A stretch of DNA of 64,000 bases from Escherichia coli (GTDB lineage: Bacteria > Pseudomonadota > Gammaproteobacteria > Enterobacterales > Enterobacteriaceae). The stretch lies in the NCBI RefSeq assembly GCF_009931435.1, contig NZ_CP043414.1; one strand, written 5' to 3'. A program made the position numbers and the translations under genes. Position 1 is the stretch's first letter. Each line of letters begins with the position of its first letter. This document shows, piece after piece, positions 30,867-58,046 of the stretch. The notes beneath the pieces were generated by a model. It was given only the letters and a program-made list of their open reading frames with translations, was not told the DNA's origin and did no database searches.

Positions 30867-31300
30867 CAGTGTTTCTCCTTTCGCCCGCCAGAGTAAAAAG
30901 CAACCGTTTACGTTCATGAAACTGTTTAAACACATGCTCGTGGAGTGCCAGTTTTTGCAAGGAAGGGGAGTTAGAGACAGGAATTGCGGAGGCAATCACA
31001 TAATCGTGATTAAACTACGAAAATGAGAAGAGAACCAGACAGTGGAATTATCTGCAATTTTCTCATATTGATATTTTATTAATCATTCTGGCATGTAGCT
31101 CTCTCGCATTTAATCAAGTTTATCTGGATAGCTCTCTTTTGGACCTTGATGTTGAAATAATGAAAGCGGCACAGATTGAGGGGTAATAATTTGAACTTAG
31201 TCACAAACTTATAATTAAAAAGTCATTCTACCTAATATATGCCCGTTTATTGCATCGCGAACTTTGAGAAGACATAACTCATTAAATGAAAGGGATGCAA

Positions 31301-38046: not shown

Positions 38047-40917
38047 TTATATTTTTTCCAGCGCGGTGAGTATTTTCTCCGGTGTGAAATGCCATTCGCG
38101 TAACCAGATGCCGCAGGCATCGTGAATTGCGGTAGCAATCGCCGGAGCTGCGCCATTTACACCGATTTCTGAGATTGATTTCGCCCCGAATGGGCCGACT
38201 TTATCGTCGCTCGGCACCAGCACAGCGCGGAAATCACGCGGAATGTCACCAATTTTCGGTGCGCCGTAACTGCGTAAATCACGCGTTAACGGGTGGCCTT
38301 CGGCGTCATAAATGATTTCTTCGCTCATACTGTGCCCGATAGCACGCAGGGTGGCTCCGTAGATTTGTCCCAACGCTAACTCTGGATTGACCGGTGTACC
38401 ACAGTCCAGCAAGGCGTAGAATTTATCCAGGCGGATTTCACCCGTACGTGTGTTGACGGCAACTTCAGCAAAGTTTGCGCCATACGGGAAGGCGAAATCA
38501 GGCGTGATATAACTGGCAGTTCCCACCAGTGAACCAAAACCGGTGCCGGTTTCGCCTTTATGGGCAATATCCCCGAAACTAACTTCGCCTTTCTTGCCGC
38601 GCACGACGCCCGGCGTTGCTAGTTGAACATCTGCCACTGGCTCACCCAACATTTGCGCGCCGTGGAACAGAATTTTATCCCGCAGATTTTCCGCTGCCAA
38701 ACGCGCCGCGTTACCCGAGAAGCAAGTACCGGACGAGGCATATGCGCCTTTATCAAACAACGCATGATCGGTATCACCGGAGATAACATGCACGTCCTGC
38801 GGTGGGCAGTGCAGCACTTCTGCTGCCAGTTTCGTCACCACGGTATCCAGACCAGTACCAATATCCGCACCGCCAGAATGAACAATAAAGGTACCGTCCG
38901 ATTCCAGTTTAATCATGCAGTTAGCCTGATCGATATCCGGGATCCCCGATTTCTGCATGATAATGGCGACGCCGCGACCGATGTGCCAGTCACCATTTTG
39001 CGGTTTTGGTGAAGACCATTGGATCATCTCGCGACCCTGACGCAGGATCTCTTCCAGCGCGCAGCTGGCGGCGGAAGGAACGGAGGTCGGCGCTTTACCT
39101 TCACCAATCGCACCGAGAATTTTCAGCTCTTGCCCTTCGTGTACCCGGTTACGTTCGATAATTTCCAGTTGGTCGATCTGTAACTGTTCAGCCAGTTCCG
39201 CTAATGCCATAGTGATAGCGAAGTTACCTTTCGGTGCACCATAACCCTGATAAGCACCATTTGGACAAATGTTGCTGTAGTAGGTGGTGACCTGGAAATC
39301 GACGTTATCGCACGGATATAACGGCAGCGACAGCGCCGGTCCGTTACATGGTACGGTGAGTGAGTGATTGCCGTAAGGGCCTGTGTTGGCGCGGAAATCC
39401 ATCTTCACGGCCGTCAGGCGACCATCTTTCTTTGCCCCCAGTTTGACGGTGACTTTCGCGACGTGACGAGAGGTGTTAGCAATAAACTCTTCTTCACGGG
39501 TGTAGCGGAACAGTACCGGACGCCCGGTCACGCAGGTTGCCCAGGCGCACACTTCTTCCAGCAGGATGTCCTGTTTAGACCCAAAACCGCCGCCAACTCG
39601 CTCTTTAATTACATGAACTTTATGTTGTTTCATGCCCACGAGGCGCGCGACCTGGCGGCGTAAGTGCCATGGTACCTGGGTGGAGGCGTGGATAACCAGA
39701 CGATCGCCGTCCATACGGGTAAAGCATATATGAGTTTCAGTCGGGCACTGCTGCGCCTGCGTTGAGTTATAGGTTCGCTCAATGATCACATCGGCATCGG
39801 CAAAGCCTTTGTCCATATCGCCAATATGACCATGAATACTGGCGGCGATATTTTTACGGGGGCGAGAACCGATCGGGAAGTTGATGATCATATGCTCGCC
39901 GCGCTGGGCTGCATGGCTGTTATCGTCTTCCAGAGTATCTGGCGCACCAGCAACATACACCACCGGTTCATCGTGCACGACAGGCGCATCTTCCGCCATT
40001 GCCTCGTCAATCGACATTACAGGTTTAAGCACTTCATATTCAACGTCGATGAGCTTCAGTGCTTCGAGCGCAATTTCTTCACTTTCTGCGACGACCGCAG
40101 CAACGCGATCGCCGACGTGACGCATTTTCTTGCCGAACATACGGCGGTCAAGCGGTGACGGTTCCGGTGCGCTCTGACCACCCGGGGTGTAGTAGATATC
40201 CGGGCAATTCAGATGAGTAATAACGTGGACGACGCCTGGTAAGGCTTCAGCTTTGCTGACATCCAGGTGAGTAATCAGTGCGTGAGCGTGAGGGCTACGT
40301 AACATTTTAATGACGCAGGCGTCAGCCGTTACGCGGTCTTCAACATAGCAGGGTTTCGCCTGCACCATTTTTGCGGCATCAGTTTTAGGATAATGCTTAC
40401 CAATGACTTCAAGGTCATCGCGGAAAGTCGGAGCGATATCAATGGTGGCCTGCGGGTTATTTTTACGTGCAACCGCCAGTTCAATGACCTGATAGTATTG
40501 TTGCCAGCCTGCATCGCGACTGAACAAACCAGAAAGCGCGTCGTCGATCTCTTCGCGGGTCGGTGCGGCGATACGCTCGAGCAGATCAGTGATAATCAGA
40601 GCCGCAGCTGGATCGTTATAACCAGACTGCACCACGCCAACATCAACCATTGCCTGTTGAACCAGACTTAACTCGTTCCATTTGCCCAGAGACTCTGCGG
40701 TACGAATATCTGCCTTCTCTAACTGTGCGGCGATAAGCAAGGACGCGTTAACGATATTACCGTTAAAGATAATTGCGTCAGAACCGGCAAACCCGAATCC
40801 ATCATCGCTGTTGCGTACAGAGTGCATTCCCATGTTAAACAACAGCTTTTGCACGTTTTCGCCTGGATTAACGGTTAGCTCCTGAGGCGCGCCATTTAAA
40901 GTAAAGTGGATGATCAT
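38047..40917 (-). CDS. xdhD: Molybdenum-hydroxylase family protein with fused N-terminal 2Fe-2S domain and C-terminal molybdopterin domain (xanthine-dehydrogenase-like)
   Basis: Track ORF 956 aa; aldehyde oxidase/xanthine dehydrogenase family features. Confidence 0.88.
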   Translation of the reverse strand: MIIHFTLNGAPQELTVNPGENVQKLLFNMGMHSVRNSDDGFGFAGSDAIIFNGNIVNASLLIAAQLEKADIRTAESLGKWNELSLVQQAMVDVGVVQSGYNDPAAALIITDLLERIAAPTREEIDDALSGLFSRDAGWQQYYQVIELAVARKNNPQATIDIAPTFRDDLEVIGKHYPKTDAAKMVQAKPCYVEDRVTADACVIKMLRSPHAHALITHLDVSKAEALPGVVHVITHLNCPDIYYTPGGQSAPEPSPLDRRMFGKKMRHVGDRVAAVVAESEEIALEALKLIDVEYEVLKPVMSIDEAMAEDAPVVHDEPVVYVAGAPDTLEDDNSHAAQRGEHMIINFPIGSRPRKNIAASIHGHIGDMDKGFADADVIIERTYNSTQAQQCPTETHICFTRMDGDRLVIHASTQVPWHLRRQVARLVGMKQHKVHVIKERVGGGFGSKQDILLEEVCAWATCVTGRPVLFRYTREEEFIANTSRHVAKVTVKLGAKKDGRLTAVKMDFRANTGPYGNHSLTVPCNGPALSLPLYPCDNVDFQVTTYYSNICPNGAYQGYGAPKGNFAITMALAELAEQLQIDQLEIIERNRVHEGQELKILGAIGEGKAPTSVPSAASCALEEILRQGREMIQWSSPKPQNGDWHIGRGVAIIMQKSGIPDIDQANCMIKLESDGTFIVHSGGADIGTGLDTVVTKLAAEVLHCPPQDVHVISGDTDHALFDKGAYASSGTCFSGNAARLAAENLRDKILFHGAQMLGEPVADVQLATPGVVRGKKGEVSFGDIAHKGETGTGFGSLVGTASYITPDFAFPYGANFAEVAVNTRTGEIRLDKFYALLDCGTPVNPELALGQIYGATLRAIGHSMSEEIIYDAEGHPLTRDLRSYGAPKIGDIPRDFRAVLVPSDDKVGPFGAKSISEIGVNGAAPAIATAIHDACGIWLREWHFTPEKILTALEKI

Positions 40918-41743: not shown

Positions 41744-43072
41744 TTATGCCAGCGCATCCATCCGACGCCACATAGCAGCAGCGGCTTTTCTGGCTTGCGC
41801 ATAAATGGAATCGCAATCGAAGTTAAACTGACGGTCTTCATAGACCATAACGCCGTTGACCATCACGCTGTGGACGCTGCCTGAACCCATGCCGAAAGCG
41901 ATATGTCCAGCGATATTGTCTGCCAGCAGTGGCGTCGGCGAGTTGTAATCGCAAATGGTTAAATCGGCTTTATAACCGGTTTCCAGCAGGCCAAATTTCG
42001 CGCCAAAGTTGCGGCTCATCAGTTCGTTGCCGTTAGCCAGAGCTTTGGCAAAGCTGTCAGGCCACAGCGGACCACCCGCATCGCGATGTTTAAAGAAGGC
42101 AAATTTCATCTCTTCAAACATATCTGAACCAATACCGTCCGTACCCAACGCCAGATTGCGGATGTCGCAAAGATGATGGTTGTAGCCGACATGGTTGTTC
42201 ATGTTTGAACGGGCGTTATGCACCAGGAATGCATCACGCTGATTGAGCAACGCGATGTCGTCTTTAGACAGATAAAGCCCATGAGCGACCAGCGTTTTGC
42301 TGTCGATGAGATCGAATTGCGCTAATCGTGCCAGCAGATCTTTGCCGTACCAGTGATGACTATGGGAAACATCGTAAAGGTCTTCCGCAGCGTGAATATG
42401 TAAACCACGGCCTGTGGCTTTCACGGCCTCACGCAGCATTTCCAGACCGGCATCCGGCACAGTAAACGGCGCGTGAGCACCAATATGAGCCTCTACCAGA
42501 TACGGTTCAGTTGCCGCTTTCTTCGCATCATCAATCTGACGGGCGAAGCGGATATTTTCCTCTACTCCTTCCTGTAGTTCTTTAATGCCGTTGTTACGGT
42601 CAGTGGTTTCAAAACAGGTCATCGCACGCAGGCCAACTTTTAAAAATGCGTTGCGCAATGTGGAGAGCGACCCGCTGATATACGCCGGAGAGGCATGGTG
42701 ATCGATAACAGATGTACAGCCGCTCTTAATCGCTTCCAGTGAACAAATCAGCCCGCTGTAATAGAGCGACTCTTCATCAAGGGCGCGATCGAGCCGCCAC
42801 CAGAGATTTTTCAGCGTTGAAATGAAATCCGGGCAGGGGGCGATGTTTGCCATAATTCCACGGGAAAGCCCCGAGTAAAAATGGTTGTGCGAGCAGACAA
42901 TTCCCGGCATCACAATCCGACCATGCATCTCTTTGTAGTTGGCATCGGGGTAGCGTTGCGTCAGCGCATCGCCGATAGCGACAATCACATCATTTTCGAT
43001 GGCGATATCAACGCCTTCCTGCACTTTCGCCGGGTGTAACTGCACTGCGGTGACATTCTTCAGAATCAACAT
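41744..43072 (-). CDS. ssnA: Amidohydrolase-superfamily protein SsnA (chlorohydrolase/aminohydrolase-like)
   Basis: Track ORF 442 aa; HxH motif (CSHNHFYSG). Confidence 0.88.
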   Translation of the reverse strand: MLILKNVTAVQLHPAKVQEGVDIAIENDVIVAIGDALTQRYPDANYKEMHGRIVMPGIVCSHNHFYSGLSRGIMANIAPCPDFISTLKNLWWRLDRALDEESLYYSGLICSLEAIKSGCTSVIDHHASPAYISGSLSTLRNAFLKVGLRAMTCFETTDRNNGIKELQEGVEENIRFARQIDDAKKAATEPYLVEAHIGAHAPFTVPDAGLEMLREAVKATGRGLHIHAAEDLYDVSHSHHWYGKDLLARLAQFDLIDSKTLVAHGLYLSKDDIALLNQRDAFLVHNARSNMNNHVGYNHHLCDIRNLALGTDGIGSDMFEEMKFAFFKHRDAGGPLWPDSFAKALANGNELMSRNFGAKFGLLETGYKADLTICDYNSPTPLLADNIAGHIAFGMGSGSVHSVMVNGVMVYEDRQFNFDCDSIYAQARKAAAAMWRRMDALA

Positions 43073-43074
43073 GA

Positions 43075-46000
43075 TTACACCTCCACGCGGCCCAGCAGAT
43101 AATGATGATGCTGGTGGACATGGCTAATGATGCGGCACATATCGTTCAGCTCCGGTGGTACGTTGTTGAACTGACCTTCGCTGTCGATGTTTAACACCCA
43201 GCTTTGGTTATTCAGACGTACTCGTACCCGGCAATCTTCCACAAGGAAGCCTGGGTTGCTGCTGTTATCAAAGTCTTGCGACAGGCTGAAGACGGTGATT
43301 TTGTCTTTGTACGGTTTACCGTTCCACGGACAGAACTGAGCACAGTTGCCGCATTCGTTACAGTAAGCGTCGAGGTGCAGCGTCTGGAAACGGTTCTGGA
43401 AGCCAGGGACCGCAATGGATACGTTGGCGCGGTTCGGGCAGACATCCACACACTTGCTGCAAACGTAGTTACATTCAAGGCAGCGAGCGGCTTCCTGGGC
43501 GACAAACGCGTCACGATCGTCGCTATCCACCAGGGTGATAGAGATATCGCCTTTGCGTTGATAGATTTCCGCCGGATTGACGTTGTTCCAGTATTTATCG
43601 TTCTGGTGGGAACGGATATTTTCCCGACTAAGGATGGCATCGGTAGCCCGACGCGCAGTTCCGACAGCAGCGACAATGGAGGATGGTCCGCGCTGTACGT
43701 CGCCGATCATAAAGACGTCAGTCAGACGAGTTTCGCCATTATGGTCGACGTCTGGCCAGCCATTTTTGTCCAGCGGCACGCCCATCGCATTCAGGGCTTC
43801 AGTATCCTGCTGTTCGCCAATGGCGGTGATCAGGCTGTCTACATGCAGTGTTACTGTTTCGTTGGTTTCAACCGGACGGCGACGACCTTTCTCATCAGGT
43901 TCGCCAAGCGACATAACGCGCAAGGTTAAGGTGCCATCAGCATCGAAACGTTCCGGATTATTCAGGAAACGGAACTCCACGCCGTCGTGCAACGCTTCTT
44001 CATACTCTTCGCGCCATGCGGGCATCTCTTGCAGTGAACGACGATAAACGACCGTTGCTTTTTCTACGCCTGGAACGCGTAACGCCGCACGAGCGCAGTC
44101 CATTGCGGTGTTACCCGCCCCGACAACGACCACATGCTTGCCCAGCTTGAGCGTAGTGCCTTTGTTGTATTCACGCAGGAAGGGGAGTGATTTCCACACA
44201 TTTTGGTTGTCGCCCGCCAATTTCACACCGCTATTTTTATCAGTGCCGGTGGCAATCAGAACATAGTGGAAGCCCTGATTTTTTAACTGTTCAACGGTCA
44301 GATCGGGTGAGCAGCCATACTCAAATTTCACGCCGTGAGCGGCAACAAAATCGATATCGTGCTGAATTAACTCTGCAGGAATACGGAACTGAGGAATGAT
44401 ATTTTTCACCACGCCGCCCGCATTGGCTTCGCGTTCAAACAGCGTAACCGGATGGCCCGCTCTGGCAAGGAAGTAACCTGCTGCCAGACCCGCCGGACCT
44501 GCACCAATCACGGCAACCGGATGGCGTGAACCAGAACCGGCTGGTTTGTGCCAGCGTTGCTTATATTCATCCCAACCTTTTTCCAGCGCGACTTTTTTCA
44601 GTTCGCGGATATTCAGCGCACTGTCGTAATCCAGGCGGGTACAGTTGTATTGGCACTGGTGATCGCAAATATGACCGGTAATGGCGGGCAGGGCGTTGCG
44701 TTGGTAGATGAGTTCCAGTGCGTCGGCATAGCGGTGTTCGCCAAGCAGACGGATGTATTCCGGAATATCCTGTTTAATGGCGCAAGCAGTAACGCACGGT
44801 GCAACGTAGCAGTCGGTCAGCGGCAGGTCTTCTGCCACTTCAATACGCTCTTCTGGCTTCCAGTGTTTCTGCGTGTATTCCATGGTTAACGCGTCTGCTG
44901 CCAGTTTGTTCAGTCGTTCGACGTCAACATGGTCAAGCCCCCAGGCGTCGGAGCCTTCCAGCTCGCGCATGCAGGCACTTAAGCGCAGATAGCCGCCAGG
45001 TTTCAGCAGGTCGGTTGCCATAGTAATAGGGCGAATACCAGTATCAAAAATATCGCGGATAGTCAGCTGACTGGCACCACCGGAATAAGAAATGGGCAGT
45101 TTGCCGTCAAAGGCGCGAGAGAGAACTGCTGCAACATTGATGGAGAGCGGGAACAGCGCACGGCCTGACATATACATCTCTTCACCAGGCAGTGCACCTT
45201 TGTTATTAATGGTGCCGAGGGTATTGGTCAGTTTGACGCCAAAGCCGAGTGATTTTTCTTTTGCCAGTACCATCAGGCGTTCCAGCATTTCCAGCGCTTG
45301 CGTCAGCTTGAGGTCGTGATCAAATGACTCTTCTTTTAAGCCTATGTAACCGAAACCGCAGACATCGAGGATCTCACGAACACGCGCGTACCCCAGTAAG
45401 GTCGGGTTGAGTTTCACAAAGGTATTGAGCCCTTTTTCTTCCAGCATGTAGCGGCAAATGGCTTCGATTTCATGCGGAGGACAGCCGTGCATCGTGGAGA
45501 GGGTAACGCCTTGTACCATGCTGGTGGGGATGCGTGCCGGTAAGGCCTGCAAGCATTCGCGTTTTTCCTGTAAGCCGTGGCGGGCTAAAAATGCGTCATC
45601 CTGGAGTAATTTATTCAGCGTATCGCGATATTGAGCGAATTTCGGATGGTCAGATGCGTCCATCATATTATCGATGAACTGTTGCATCGGCGGTTGCTTA
45701 ATACCTTCGAGGTTGTAACCGACGCTCATATTAAAGATGAACGATTTACCGGAATCAGAAGGCTGGAACATCGCTTCGAGAAGGTGCAGGGCAAACCAGG
45801 CTTTGAGGTATTCATCCCAGGCTTTAAGCAGGGTAAATTCGGTGGACCATTCGGTGTTAAAGCACTCGTCTTCGGCATCAATACAGGGCTTTTCCAGCTC
45901 CAGGCGGTCAAGAATTTGGACGGTTTTTAGTTCGATGAAGCGTCCGCCAGTCAGCCAGGATGTGACAATATTTTGCGCGAGCTGCGTGTGCGGACCAGCG

Positions 46001-46173
46001 GCAGGGCCGACGGGAGTGGCACAGGTTTCACCGAAGACGCTAACAGTTTTACCTTTTACGGGTGAGTAAAACTGTTGCTCGGGAATACCAAAGATTGAGC
46101 GTTGTTGTTGGTATTCATCAAATATGCGCGTCAAAAGTTCCTCAAACGGAATGGGACGCATAATATCCCCCAT
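43075..46173 (-). CDS. ygfK: Large Fe-S / FAD-NAD(P) oxidoreductase (historically annotated putative selenate reductase subunit YgfK)
   Basis: Track ORF 1032 aa; GAGPAG dinucleotide motifs and C-terminal Cys clusters (CxxCxxCxxxCP). Confidence 0.88.
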   Translation of the reverse strand: MGDIMRPIPFEELLTRIFDEYQQQRSIFGIPEQQFYSPVKGKTVSVFGETCATPVGPAAGPHTQLAQNIVTSWLTGGRFIELKTVQILDRLELEKPCIDAEDECFNTEWSTEFTLLKAWDEYLKAWFALHLLEAMFQPSDSGKSFIFNMSVGYNLEGIKQPPMQQFIDNMMDASDHPKFAQYRDTLNKLLQDDAFLARHGLQEKRECLQALPARIPTSMVQGVTLSTMHGCPPHEIEAICRYMLEEKGLNTFVKLNPTLLGYARVREILDVCGFGYIGLKEESFDHDLKLTQALEMLERLMVLAKEKSLGFGVKLTNTLGTINNKGALPGEEMYMSGRALFPLSINVAAVLSRAFDGKLPISYSGGASQLTIRDIFDTGIRPITMATDLLKPGGYLRLSACMRELEGSDAWGLDHVDVERLNKLAADALTMEYTQKHWKPEERIEVAEDLPLTDCYVAPCVTACAIKQDIPEYIRLLGEHRYADALELIYQRNALPAITGHICDHQCQYNCTRLDYDSALNIRELKKVALEKGWDEYKQRWHKPAGSGSRHPVAVIGAGPAGLAAGYFLARAGHPVTLFEREANAGGVVKNIIPQFRIPAELIQHDIDFVAAHGVKFEYGCSPDLTVEQLKNQGFHYVLIATGTDKNSGVKLAGDNQNVWKSLPFLREYNKGTTLKLGKHVVVVGAGNTAMDCARAALRVPGVEKATVVYRRSLQEMPAWREEYEEALHDGVEFRFLNNPERFDADGTLTLRVMSLGEPDEKGRRRPVETNETVTLHVDSLITAIGEQQDTEALNAMGVPLDKNGWPDVDHNGETRLTDVFMIGDVQRGPSSIVAAVGTARRATDAILSRENIRSHQNDKYWNNVNPAEIYQRKGDISITLVDSDDRDAFVAQEAARCLECNYVCSKCVDVCPNRANVSIAVPGFQNRFQTLHLDAYCNECGNCAQFCPWNGKPYKDKITVFSLSQDFDNSSNPGFLVEDCRVRVRLNNQSWVLNIDSEGQFNNVPPELNDMCRIISHVHQHHHYLLGRVEV

Positions 46174-46254
46174 AACCCTCTCCTTAGCTTATACAGATAT
46201 CATTGAGTGACCGGTGTTGAGAAATCCGGTGGTTTAGGGGGATAGAGCAACAAT

Positions 46255-46271
46255 CGCACCACTCTTGCCAG
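46255..46271 (-). promoter_or_regulatory. Candidate sigma54-like promoter upstream of ygfK: minus strand CTGGCAAGAGTGGTGCG (GG-N10-GC)
   Basis: Read directly; ~85 nt upstream of ygfK ATG; -12 element GTGC deviates from TTGC. Confidence 0.35.
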
Positions 46272-46494
46272 GTTTGGCGGGAAATATAAAAAAATGTGAG
46301 GCGGCTCGAAACTTAAGGGCTTTTTGTGAATGAACTCACAGGTGCCAAATGAGAATTAAAATCACTCCTGGGAATTATTATTACCAGCCCATTTATCACT
46401 TTTTCTCTTTTCTCAAAATCAGTGATTCCTTATCATAATGATAAAGCAGGCTGGATGGTTTAAATATTTGAACGCAAACGTTTAACTACGTTTT

Positions 46495-47073
46495 CTAAAT
46501 TTCAGTATACCTTTTTTGCGCTGTAATAAAGTCGTCCGGAGTATCAATATCTAAAATTATTTCTGCATTCTCTATTTCGACGGAATAATGTTCTCCCATA
46601 AGGAGTGCCTGACGCATATTGGTGACATTGGGTCGCTGGGTTGCCTGCATCAGGCATGGCTTTGACACTAAAATCGGATGGCCGGGGATACCTTTATGGA
46701 GTGGCAGTATTGCGCCATCATTACGTAACGACCAGATTTTTCTAAAAATATCGATGGTGAGGGTTGGCATGTCACCGTGGGTGAGAAAACAATGTTCGGT
46801 TTGCACCGCGGGTACTGCGGCCTTTACTGATGTCAGTAAACCCTGCGCATAATTTGGGTTGTGGATAATAGTGATATTACTCTGGTTCGCATAACGTTCG
46901 TGCAGTTCATTACCACGATAGCCGGTGACTAAAATAATTCGGCTACAAAACTGCAACGCATTTTTGATACTTGCATCAAGAATTGTTCCCTCTTGCCAGG
47001 GTAACATCATTTTCCATTGCCCCATTCTTGATGATAATCCGGCAGCGGTAATTATACAGTCGATGGCTGACAT
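46495..47073 (-). CDS. mocA: Molybdenum cofactor cytidylyltransferase
   Basis: Track ORF 192 aa; nucleotidyltransferase N-terminal motif IITAAGLSSRMG. Confidence 0.88.
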   Translation of the reverse strand: MSAIDCIITAAGLSSRMGQWKMMLPWQEGTILDASIKNALQFCSRIILVTGYRGNELHERYANQSNITIIHNPNYAQGLLTSVKAAVPAVQTEHCFLTHGDMPTLTIDIFRKIWSLRNDGAILPLHKGIPGHPILVSKPCLMQATQRPNVTNMRQALLMGEHYSVEIENAEIILDIDTPDDFITAQKRYTEI

Positions 47074-55899: not shown

Positions 55900-56267
55900 A
55901 ATTATCCACACGGCTATAAAAGACTAATTTGACGGGTAATGTGTGGTGTAGATCACAAATTGATGCCAGCTTCCGGTTGTGTGTAAAATACGAAAACGTT
56001 TGGCTTTTTTTATTGCGTTGTTTATTTGCTGCTAAGTATCAGAAATAAGATAAAGGGGCAGGCTATCCCTCGTCAGTTTGATAAACTCACCGCTGTAATT
56101 CTCATATTGATATAGAAATGTGATATCTCTTCCATAATTTCATTAGAAAGTGATAAAAACCTTATGTTTTTATCAAAGCCAATTTCGCCTGAGTTAATAT
56201 CATGATGATCTGTGAACCATCAACGTCTTCAATGATCGACTTTTAAGTAAGTCTGGAAGGTAAAGCT

Positions 56268-58046
56268 ATGGAGCTTGCTACTACGCAGTCAGTATTGATG
56301 CAAATTCAACCGACAATTCAGCGTTTTGCCAGAATGCTTGCCAGCGTTTTGCAGCTTGAGGTTGAGATCGTTGATGAAAACTTGTGTCGCGTCGCCGGAA
56401 CGGGCGCGTATGGGAAGTTTCTTGGCCGCCAGTTGAGCGGCAACTCACGCCTGCTCCGCCACGTCCTGGAAACGAAAACTGAAAAAGTTGTGACACAGTC
56501 TCGCTTCGATCCCCTTTGCGAAGGTTGCGATAATAAAGATAATTGTCGCGAAAAAGCATTTCTGGGTACGCCTGTCATTTTACAGGATCGTTGTGTTGGG
56601 GTGATAAGTTTGATTGCAGTTACCCACGAGCAACAAGAACATATCAGTGATAATTTACGCGAGTTTTCTGATTACGTTCGCCATATATCCACCATTTTTG
56701 TTTCGAAACTTCTGGAGGATCAGGGACCAGGAGATAACATCAGTAAAATATTCGCGACCATGATCGATAATATGGATCAGGGCGTATTAGTTGTTGATGA
56801 CGATAATCGGGTTCAGTTTGTTAATCAGACGGCCTTAAAAACACTCGGTGTTGTGCAAAATAATATTATTGGGAAACCTATCCGTTTCAGACCATTAACA
56901 TTTGAGAGTAATTTTACCCACGGACATATGCAACATATTGTTTCGTGGGACGATAAAAGTGAATTAATCATTGGCCAATTGCATAACATTCAGGGCAGAC
57001 AATTATTTTTAATGGCGTTTCACCAATCGCATACCAGTTTTTCTGTAGCAAATGCACCTGATGAACCGCATATTGAACAATTGGTTGGCGAGTGCCGTGT
57101 TATGCGGCAATTAAAACGACTCATTAGCCGTATTGCGCCCAGCCCATCCAGCGTTATGGTGGTTGGTGAAAGCGGCACGGGTAAAGAAGTCGTCGCGCGT
57201 GCAATCCATAAGTTGAGTGGAAGACGAAATAAACCCTTTATTGCTATCAACTGTGCCGCGATTCCTGAACAACTTCTGGAGAGCGAACTATTCGGTTATG
57301 TTAAAGGCGCATTTACTGGCGCTTCAGCCAACGGTAAAACAGGGTTGATTCAGGCGGCGAATACGGGCACGCTGTTTCTCGATGAAATTGGTGATATGCC
57401 ATTAATGTTGCAGGCTAAATTACTGCGCGCTATTGAGGCGCGTGAAATACTGCCGATTGGTGCCAGTAGCCCAATTCAGGTCGACATCCGAATCATTTCT
57501 GCAACTAACCAGAATTTGGCCCAGTTCATTGCCGAAGGTAAATTCCGCGAAGATCTCTTCTACCGACTCAATGTTATCCCGATCACTCTTCCACCGCTGC
57601 GTGAACGTCAGGAAGATATTGAACTGCTGGTACATTACTTTTTACATCTGCATACCCGTCGTCTGGGATCGGTTTATCCTGGCATTGCTCCCGATGTCGT
57701 CGAGATATTGCGTAAGCATCGTTGGCCCGGAAACCTGCGCGAGTTAAGCAATTTAATGGAATATCTGGTTAACGTTGTTCCTTCAGGTGAAGTTATCGAC
57801 AGCACGCTATTGCCTCCAAATTTGCTGAATAATGGCACAACGGAGCAAAGTGATGTAACAGAGGTCAGCGAGGCGCACTTGGCACTCGATGATGCGGGCG
57901 GCACGGCGCTGGAGGAGATGGAAAAGCAAATGATCCGCGAGGCGCTTTCACGTCATAGCAGCAAGAAGCAAGTTGCTGATGAACTGGGTATCGGCATTGC
58001 TACGCTCTATCGCAAGATAAAGAAATATGAGTTGTTAAACGCATAA
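56268..58046 (+). CDS. ygeV: Sigma54-dependent transcriptional activator (bacterial enhancer-binding protein) with N-terminal sensor region, AAA+ domain and C-terminal HTH
   Basis: Track ORF 592 aa; Walker A GESGTGKE, GAFTGA sigma54-contact motif, C-terminal HTH. Confidence 0.9.
   Translation: MELATTQSVLMQIQPTIQRFARMLASVLQLEVEIVDENLCRVAGTGAYGKFLGRQLSGNSRLLRHVLETKTEKVVTQSRFDPLCEGCDNKDNCREKAFLGTPVILQDRCVGVISLIAVTHEQQEHISDNLREFSDYVRHISTIFVSKLLEDQGPGDNISKIFATMIDNMDQGVLVVDDDNRVQFVNQTALKTLGVVQNNIIGKPIRFRPLTFESNFTHGHMQHIVSWDDKSELIIGQLHNIQGRQLFLMAFHQSHTSFSVANAPDEPHIEQLVGECRVMRQLKRLISRIAPSPSSVMVVGESGTGKEVVARAIHKLSGRRNKPFIAINCAAIPEQLLESELFGYVKGAFTGASANGKTGLIQAANTGTLFLDEIGDMPLMLQAKLLRAIEAREILPIGASSPIQVDIRIISATNQNLAQFIAEGKFREDLFYRLNVIPITLPPLRERQEDIELLVHYFLHLHTRRLGSVYPGIAPDVVEILRKHRWPGNLRELSNLMEYLVNVVPSGEVIDSTLLPPNLLNNGTTEQSDVTEVSEAHLALDDAGGTALEEMEKQMIREALSRHSSKKQVADELGIGIATLYRKIKKYELLNA

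Follow-up and report, generated by a model that had tools for sequence, protein, structure and literature searches.

How is the ygfK-ssnA-ygfM-xdhD operon of Escherichia coli switched on, and which proteins act in the spacer upstream of ygfK? This question was addressed in a 64-kb stretch of contig NZ_CP043414.1, referred to as the window throughout, that holds the E. coli ygeV/xdh/ygfK purine/urate catabolism locus, in the orientation opposite to that of K-12. The operon encodes core steps of anaerobic uric-acid degradation, a pathway that gut bacteria use to lower host urate, and recent work assigns YgfK to the reductive uric-acid degradation pathway. By annotation, ygfK is the first gene of the operon (43075..46173, minus strand, 1032 aa) and mocA is its upstream neighbour on the same strand (46495..47073, minus strand), with a spacer of 321 bp between them (46174-46494). 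An earlier note on this DNA had described a sigma-54-like element, a CRP-type palindrome and a 15-bp palindrome, all of which lie within the spacer, and had suggested combined catabolite and enhancer-dependent control of ygfK.

We consider it probable, and the best explanation overall, that the spacer is an enhancer-dependent sigma-54 promoter region at which YgeV acts from the 15-bp palindrome and cAMP-CRP promotes the DNA loop between enhancer and promoter. Combined control as proposed in the earlier note is supported by a published sigma-54 binding peak (OS31), CRP genomic selection data, membership of ygfK in the YgeV iModulon, glucose repression of the pathway and phylogenetic footprints. 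However, the -24/-12 element that the note had named did not stand and is replaced here by a neighbouring one.

The sigma-54 promoter of ygfK

A sigma-54 chromatin immunoprecipitation sequencing (ChIP-seq) study (Bonocora et al. 2015, PMC4591121) reported peak OS31, with a fold-above-threshold (FAT) value of 26, upstream of ygfK, counted ygfK among the five microarray-predicted sigma-54 targets that it confirmed, and identified sibling sites at xdhA, ygeW and ygfT. The motif reported for OS31 is GTGGTGCGATTGTTGCT, and a 17-mer identical to this K-12 motif is present on the minus strand of the window at 46262-46246, with the -24 GG at 46260/46259 and the -12 GC at 46248/46247. The GG and GC stand 10 bp apart in a TGGCAC-N5-TTGCW-like 17-mer. 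When ~128,000 window positions were scored with a position weight matrix (PWM) trained on the other 41 intergenic published ChIP-seq motifs, GTGGTGCGATTGTTGCT reached 11.8 bits and ranked 7; it scores below most of the training sites because its -24 box reads TGGTGC.

The element named in the earlier note, TGGCAA-N5-GTGC, is indeed present in the spacer. Its 17-mer CTGGCAAGAGTGGTGCG occupies 46255..46271 on the minus strand (as a 15-mer, TGGCAAGAGTGGTGC, 46270-46256) and overlaps the -24 box of the ChIP-matched element, which lies 9 bp further downstream. With 10.3 bits and rank 19 of ~128,000 positions, its score is close to the 11.8 bits of GTGGTGCGATTGTTGCT, so that the choice between the two candidates cannot be made on the score alone and is decided by conservation.

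For this comparison, 80 ygfK loci were fetched and the 450 bp upstream of each were scanned with the PWM. The best upstream match takes the form cTGG(T/C)(G/C)(T/C)GATTGTTGCT in essentially all gammaproteobacterial and some betaproteobacterial loci. This same element is the top match in ~45 proteobacterial genomes, at -55 to -156 from the ATG and at a similar distance throughout, and its TGG and TTGC are 100% conserved in 17 enterobacterial lineages. In contrast, the TGGCA columns of CTGGCAAGAGTGGTGCG have a mean identity of 51% over 17 enterobacterial lineages, and four of its eight core bases are changed in Klebsiella indica. An element of the CTGGCAAGAGTGGTGCG type was found only in E. coli, with a lower score in strain E69 (8.0), and in Citrobacter sp. 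MGH106, and is absent from the other scanned loci. The pattern TGGCA-N7-TGC occurs five times in the window, against 4.26 occurrences expected. On the basis of this chance frequency, the low column identity and the restriction to E. coli and one Citrobacter, we rejected CTGGCAAGAGTGGTGCG as a functional promoter, and its resemblance to a sigma-54 site is probably fortuitous.

Sigma-54 geometry, with the start placed 12 nt after the C of the -12 GC, would put transcription initiation near 46235 on the minus strand, with an uncertainty of 1-2 nt. The leader from this inferred start to the ATG at 46173 would measure 62 nt, equal to the distance of 62 listed for OS31 (PMC4591121). All upstream positions given below are counted from this start.

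Other sequences of the locus also score as sigma-54 sites. On the sense strand within the ygfK operon, ATGGCGCAAACTTTGCT (38467-38483, minus strand, in xdhD) reaches 15.3 bits and CTGGCACGATTAGCGCA (42318-42334, minus strand, in ssnA) 13.7 bits. Both outscore the ygfK promoter and resemble intragenic sigma-54 sites reported genome-wide. Divergent sigma-54-like sites of the form GCACGAACCTTGCA, found in many loci, were set aside as promoters, since they fall within the yqeC gene and code there for a conserved HEPCI peptide. A conserved sequence of yqeC, GCA(C/T)GA(A/G)CCTTGCA, which likewise codes for HEPCI, scores 14-16 bits in 10 orthologue loci (L012, L014, L015, L016, L019, L023, L032, L035, L050 and L076), and may be an artefact of the coding sequence or else a sigma-54 site conserved within the gene.

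The upstream palindrome and YgeV

The 15-bp palindrome at 46430..46444, TTATCATAATGATAA, has the form TTATCA-N3-TGATAA (7+1+7) and is centred at -202. It is an inverted repeat within 80-250 bp upstream of the -24/-12 element, and its motif is common to the other promoters of the regulon, as expected of an upstream activating sequence (UAS). The earlier note had given its coordinates exactly, had assigned it no definite role and had pointed to a TGATA/TATCA theme shared with xdhA and ygeW, a kinship that we can extend to ygfT. With at most one mismatch allowed, TATCA-N3-TGATA matches the window seven times against 1.35 expected, and none of 100 shuffles reached seven. Five of the seven matches fall in the four sigma-54 regulatory spacers, namely uacT-ygfT, mocA-ygfK, ygeW-ygeV (two matches) and the region upstream of xdhA. 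An identical 15-mer, TTCTCATATTGATAT, occurs in the uacT-ygfT (31060-31074) and ygeW-ygeV (56099-56113) spacers, and a near copy, CACTCATATTGATAC, lies upstream of xdhA; these belong to the same family as the ygfK palindrome.

The motif is also retained among orthologues. Upstream of ygfK in 36 genomes, 36 matches to TATCA-N3-TGATA with at most one mismatch were counted, compared to 1.1 ± 1.1 in shuffles. The ygfK-upstream palindromes mostly fall into two positional classes, ~-202 and ~-182, which are about two helical turns apart. The palindrome is present in most of the gammaproteobacterial orthologues examined and reaches Aeromonas, Vibrio, Photobacterium (with four copies), Shewanella, Reinekea and one betaproteobacterial metagenome-assembled genome (MAG) of the Rhodocyclaceae. 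Kluyvera and Cedecea neteri carry TTCTCATATTGATA at ygfK, a sequence that in E. coli precedes ygeW and ygfT, while the palindrome of Symbiopectobacterium and Lonsdalea reads TTCTCATTTTGAGAA. The ygeW orthologues retain two such palindromes, as do those of xdhA.

The most likely ligand of the palindrome is YgeV, for which it would serve as the enhancer (UAS). YgeV is encoded in the same locus (56268-58046) and combines PAS, Sigma54_activat (E = 2e-70) and HTH_8 domains, the canonical architecture of an enhancer-binding protein. A YgeV orthologue adjoins ygeW in all eight further genomes examined, and ygfK belongs to the YgeV iModulon. A search of the accessible literature returned neither a published YgeV binding site nor a described YgeV signal.

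We also considered that the palindrome might not be a YgeV enhancer, being bound instead by another factor such as Fur or IHF or being a chance AT-rich palindrome, with ygfK transcribed mainly by read-through from mocA. Some features fit this alternative. Ten consecutive bases, ATAATGATAA, match the Fur-box consensus GATAATGATAATCATTATC, the palindrome of some species is within one mismatch of the IHF core WATCAA-N4-TTR, and no intrinsic terminator was detected after mocA in a terminator scan. However, both arms of the palindrome are conserved around a free N3, a pattern that fits neither a Fur box nor the asymmetric sites of IHF. The Fur reading was rejected on its own count, since the palindrome matches the Fur-box consensus at 10 of 19 positions where ~12 would be needed and the cross-species consensus with its free N3 does not fit. 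Each of the four sigma-54 promoters of the locus moreover has the motif, frequently with two to four copies, and the motif follows the ygfK sigma-54 promoter into the betaproteobacterial MAG. Read-through is at odds with the YgeV iModulon list, in which mocA does not appear. Taken as a whole, we regard this alternative as highly improbable.

In three orthologous loci, those of Symbiopectobacterium (L039), Lonsdalea (L045) and Cedecea sulfonylureivorans (L028), ygfK faces a divergent gene that has a strong sigma-54 site of its own, and a single TTCTCATTTTGAGAA or TTATCGTAATGATAA palindrome lies between the divergent promoters. This arrangement suggests a shared bidirectional enhancer.

CRP-like sites between palindrome and promoter

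The CRP-type palindrome at 46325-46340, TGTGAATGAACTCACA, is as exact as the earlier note had reported it, with no mismatch to TGTGA-N6-TCACA and the 6-bp spacing, and is centred at -97.5 (site 1). It is the sole perfect TGTGA-N6-TCACA within the 64 kb, against 0.10 expected. At least one such core was obtained in 10 of 100 shuffles, so that the core by itself is only suggestive. The position in orthologues is more informative, as TGTGA-N6-TCACA with no more than one mismatch stands at -97.5 or -98.5 in 15 of the orthologous ygfK loci listed, spread over about a dozen enterobacterial genera; the 15 include E. coli, two Citrobacter, Klebsiella indica, Kluyvera, Pluralibacter, Serratia, Edwardsiella, Buttiauxella, Hafnia and Morganella. 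Mean column identity is 0.84 in the arms and 0.61 in the six bases between them, which vary freely. Between the window and K. indica, none of the 10 arm bases is changed, compared to 48% of the mocA–ygfK spacer positions outside motifs. The fixed position, conserved arms and free spacer of site 1 are the signature of a protein-binding site.

Site 2, TTCGAGCCGCCTCACA (46295-46310, minus strand), is CRP-like with two mismatches. It is centred at -67.5, 30 bp downstream of site 1, and is followed by an A/T-rich tract. Across Enterobacterales it takes the consensus TT[CA]GA-N6-cTCAC[AG] at -67.5 or -68.5, and Aeromonas, Vibrio, Photobacterium and Shewanella have a TCACG version, which is placed either identically or one helical turn upstream of that position. 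Its arms have an identity of 0.93 against 0.54 for the spacer, and it is more widely conserved than site 1.

Likeness to CRP was judged by core mismatches together with published genomic systematic evolution of ligands by exponential enrichment (SELEX). In the accessible text of the cAMP-CRP genomic SELEX study (Shimada et al. 2011, PMC3105977), ygfK, ygeV<>ygeW and ygfT<>ygfU are among the new CRP targets, at a SELEX-chip resolution that identifies the spacer and not the individual site. In the window, CRP cores with at most one mismatch fall in exactly those three spacers (46325, 55942 and 31190). A 2025 paper reported that glucose represses urate degradation in wild-type E. coli and mentioned a native Crp site in the ygeV-ygeW spacer. 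In our reading, cAMP-CRP binds site 1, and probably the weaker site 2 as well.

The same TGTGA-N6-TCACA could in principle serve a separate sigma-70, CRP-dependent ygfK promoter of class I or class II that works beside the sigma-54 promoter, as glnAp1 does beside glnAp2. The perfect core, a TATATT hexamer at -53 to -48 in sigma-54 coordinates and the existence of tandem sigma-70/sigma-54 promoters at glnA would agree with such an arrangement. However, scanning the minus strand of the spacer for promoters gave no sigma-70-like candidate, and the TATATT hexamer is not conserved beyond its A/T richness. Taking TATATT as the -10 box would place the CRP centre at about -55 to -57, which corresponds to neither class. 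We rejected the class I/II reading because the spacer does not offer a CRP centre at -41.5, -61.5, -71.5 or a like position combined with a -10 box, and consider a sigma-70 promoter at this site very unlikely.

A common layout supports a role for the CRP sites at the sigma-54 promoter itself. CRP-like sites are present at all four sigma-54 promoters of the locus (ygfK, xdhA, ygeW and ygfT) and share one helical register (-67.5, -77.5, -97.5). In the window, xdhA and ygfT both carry nnnnA-N6-TCACA centred at -67.5, and ygeW carries TGTGATCTACACCACA at -77.5. The site yGTGA-N6-TCnCA holds its place at -77.5 in the ygeW orthologues of nine genera, Aeromonas among them, and xdhA orthologues keep TCACA at -64 to -60. 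The arrangement of enhancer and CRP site was seen upstream of both ygfK and ygeW in Enterobacterales and Aeromonas, and the -67.5 element also occurs at ygfK in Vibrionaceae and Shewanella. At ygfK, sites 1 and 2 are 30 bp apart and therefore on the same helix face, and the enhancer-to-CRP distance of 104.5 or 84.5 bp corresponds to whole helical turns. A search for the IHF core WATCAA-N4-TTR between -230 and -25, with at most one mismatch, returned no match in E. coli and, in orthologues, no conserved match except the palindrome itself in some species.

We propose that sigma-54 RNA polymerase would wait as a closed complex at GTGGTGCGATTGTTGCT (46262-46246). YgeV would bind the palindrome ~200 bp upstream, probably aided by nearby TGA[GT]A/T[AC]TCA half-sites, and would open the promoter by looping over to RNA polymerase. 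Bending of the intervening DNA by cAMP-CRP at -97.5, and probably also at -67.5, would favour the loop, and cAMP-CRP may in addition contact the alpha C-terminal domain (alpha-CTD) over the conserved A/T tract at -59 to -46. The ygfK promoter would then be fully active only when the YgeV signal coincides with low glucose. The sequence elements and their conservation are observed directly, and sigma-54 occupancy and in vitro binding of CRP to the spacer are documented in the literature; the start site, YgeV as ligand of the palindrome and a positive, architectural part for CRP are inferred.

The model is weakest in the direction that it assigns to the CRP effect, the sign of which is uncertain. 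The same elements could act in the opposite sense, with CRP at -97.5/-67.5 keeping enhancer-bound YgeV from the closed complex through a bend or an alpha-CTD contact. The sites do lie in the stretch that separates the enhancer from the promoter, in which a bend of the wrong phase prevents looping, and CRP bound at -51.5 represses glnAp2 by bending the DNA on the polymerase face. However, urate degradation is glucose-repressed, i.e. it is higher when cAMP-CRP is active, and by arithmetic the ygfK sites would be offset by roughly half a helical turn from the -51.5 position at which CRP represses glnAp2. There is also no IHF site that could supply a productive bend instead. From the half-turn offset and the lack of an IHF consensus we infer that the CRP bend would help the loop to form, and an inhibitory role of CRP at ygfK appears unlikely.

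Several points weigh against the model as a whole. Sigma-54 genomic SELEX did not list ygfK. The left arm of site 2, TT[CA]GA, is non-consensus across many genera, which may mean that a protein other than CRP binds there, and another dimeric factor than YgeV could bind the palindrome. Glucose repression was measured on the pathway and not on ygfK, and it was relieved by replacing only the ygeV-ygeW spacer; CRP at ygfK may therefore be dispensable when YgeV is abundant. Finally, all CRP effects at sigma-54 promoters that have been studied mechanistically, at dctA, glnAp2 and Pu, are inhibitory (PMC1865078, PMC3900584).

A stronger proposition starts from the four sigma-54 promoters of the YgeV regulon, each with a CRP site in fixed helical phase and none with an IHF site. 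According to it, a natural class of sigma-54 promoters would depend on cAMP-CRP as the co-activator that forms the loop, replacing IHF and wiring catabolite control into enhancer-promoter communication. We put this forward tentatively, as a possibility that we hold to be somewhat doubtful. If true, the role of CRP at the urate-regulon promoters would be opposite to its known inhibition at glnAp2, dctA and Pu.

Further elements and comparison with known systems

Two additional blocks of the spacer are conserved; like site 2 and the PUR-box-like site described below, they do not appear in the earlier note. The first, GTGATTTTAATTCTCATT (46348..46365, minus strand, ~-130 to -113), contains TGAT and TCTCA half-sites and is nearly invariant in 17 of 19 aligned Enterobacterales, with none or one of its 18 bases changed in Citrobacter and K. 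indica. A degenerate direct copy of it lies 19 bp upstream, and beyond this copy the search for internal repeats of the spacer found only weak inverted repeats. The second block, TTTTGAGAAA (46409..46418, minus strand, ~-183 to -174), provides a TGA[GT]A half-site ~24 bp from the centre of the palindrome, on its downstream side, and is kept as TTTTGA[GT]AA in all 19 aligned Enterobacterales. Both blocks carry half-sites of the TGA[GT]A/T[AC]TCA type and may be auxiliary YgeV sites.

Close to mocA, 8 bp after its stop codon, the spacer carries a PUR-box-like site, ACGCAAACGTTTAACT (46472..46487, ~-245). The operator consensus of PurR is ACGCAAACGTTTGCGT, a 16-bp palindrome with a central CG, and the site agrees with it at 13 of 16 positions. 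Within three mismatches of this consensus the window contains three sites (0.56 expected), each of which falls in a regulatory spacer of the urate locus. The other two lie at 55990-56005, between the ygeW enhancer and its CRP-like site, and at 30898-30913, ~32 bp before the start codon of uacT. The ygfK site is kept as TTWAWCGATTGCGYTC in several genera, including some in which mocA is not the upstream neighbour, and the ygeW site is conserved in Klebsiella indica. These observations suggest that PurR or another LacI-family factor may act on purine catabolism, with the assignment to PurR being tentative. A limited literature search found neither PurR binding data nor a link of PurR to ygfK, ygeW or uacT.

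In the inferred ygfK leader, a hairpin ACCGG-N11-CCGGT (46210..46230, minus strand) spans +6 to +26. A stem-loop starting at ~+5 is predicted in most enterobacterial and Aeromonas orthologues, with a modest mean z of -1.15 and z < -1 in 14 of 25. In Hafnia, Edwardsiella, Buttiauxella, Serratia and Aeromonas, hairpin stems of unrelated sequence occupy the same place. The predictions suggest a structurally conserved 5' stem-loop in the ygfK leader, possibly with a role in mRNA stability. Searches of the spacer for other features returned seven small open reading frames (ORFs) of 20-34 aa, none of them compelling, and, among RNA families, a single sub-threshold chance match (lysM-TM7, 20 bits vs a gathering score of 61.5).

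The gene context given in the earlier note, with mocA upstream and ygfK-ssnA-ygfM-xdhD downstream, agrees with the RefSeq annotation of a genome that is 100% identical over a 461-bp query (46100-46560) and in which the flanks of the spacer are labelled ygfK ("putative selenate reductase subunit") and mocA. Downstream of ygfK follow ssnA, ygfM and xdhD, and upstream lie yqeC/yqeB, arcC-hyuA-ygeY-dpaL-ygeW, then ygeV (divergent from ygeW) and xdhABC. Conservation within the species was examined by searching the same query against complete E. coli genomes, and it was matched in 5,171 of 5,426. Identity to the window over the query reaches 99% or more in only 10 of these 5,171 genomes and is 95-99% in the remainder, while the GTDB representative strain E69 differs at 43 of the 321 spacer positions. 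The mocA–ygfK spacer is thus unusually variable within E. coli, yet all motif cores are intact.

The sigma-54 site of ygfK and the binding of CRP to its spacer are already contained in genome-wide datasets. The searchable literature appears to contain no description of how the overlapping -24/-12 candidates are to be told apart, of the conserved enhancer motif, of CRP sites in fixed phase at all four promoters, of the lack of IHF sites or of PUR-box-like sites in three spacers. The ygfK region is a better-defined enhancer-dependent sigma-54 promoter with CRP co-regulation and not a new kind of system, and what the enhancer motif and the fixed-phase CRP layout add is modest. In E. coli strains engineered against gout, native promoters of the urate locus have already been replaced, and the corrected -24/-12 element, the TATCA-N3-TGATA enhancer motif, which is conserved across classes of the phylum, and the fixed-phase CRP sites would offer testable targets for the induction of urate catabolism and its shut-off by glucose.

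Compared to the two datasets on which it builds, the present description differs in what it resolves. OS31 (PMC4591121) is the same 17-mer in the same orientation to ygfK, with a listed distance that equals the inferred leader length; however, the published entry consists of the binding site only, without activator, enhancer, CRP site or start site. The CRP SELEX study (PMC3105977) names the same three spacers that hold CRP-like cores in the window, and its accessible text gives neither a position relative to the sigma-54 promoter nor a direction of regulation. The DioR sigma-54 regulon of Clostridiales (PMC6615313) likewise assigns this gene set to a sigma-54 activator, with homologues of ygeW-ygfK-ssnA-ygeY, dpaL, yqeB/yqeC/ygfJ and xdhC. 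It belongs to a different phylum and is likened to the E. coli locus by gene set alone, not by activator or enhancer motif.

With respect to architecture, the IHF-assisted sigma-54 promoters nifH, Pu and glnHp2 (PMC2709558) resemble ygfK in having an enhancer 100-200 bp upstream and a site for a DNA-bending protein in between. They differ from ygfK in that the latter lacks an IHF consensus and has CRP sites in that place. The promoters glnAp2, dctA and Pu (PMC1865078, PMC3900584) share with ygfK the position of CRP between the enhancer and the -24/-12 element, with bending or alpha-CTD contact as the likely route of action. In these cases CRP inhibits, from -51.5 or without a specific site, whereas the sites of the ygfK locus are evolutionarily fixed at -67.5, -77.5 and -97.5. 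The CRP sites of the urate locus are also predicted from their sequence to be of high affinity, and the physiology, in contrast to the inhibition in those cases, speaks for a positive effect of CRP. The sigma-54 promoter of prpBCDE, on which CRP has a positive effect, is the nearer analogue of ygfK. The elements described here would also allow a test, in a natural setting, of whether CRP can act positively as an architectural factor at sigma-54 promoters.

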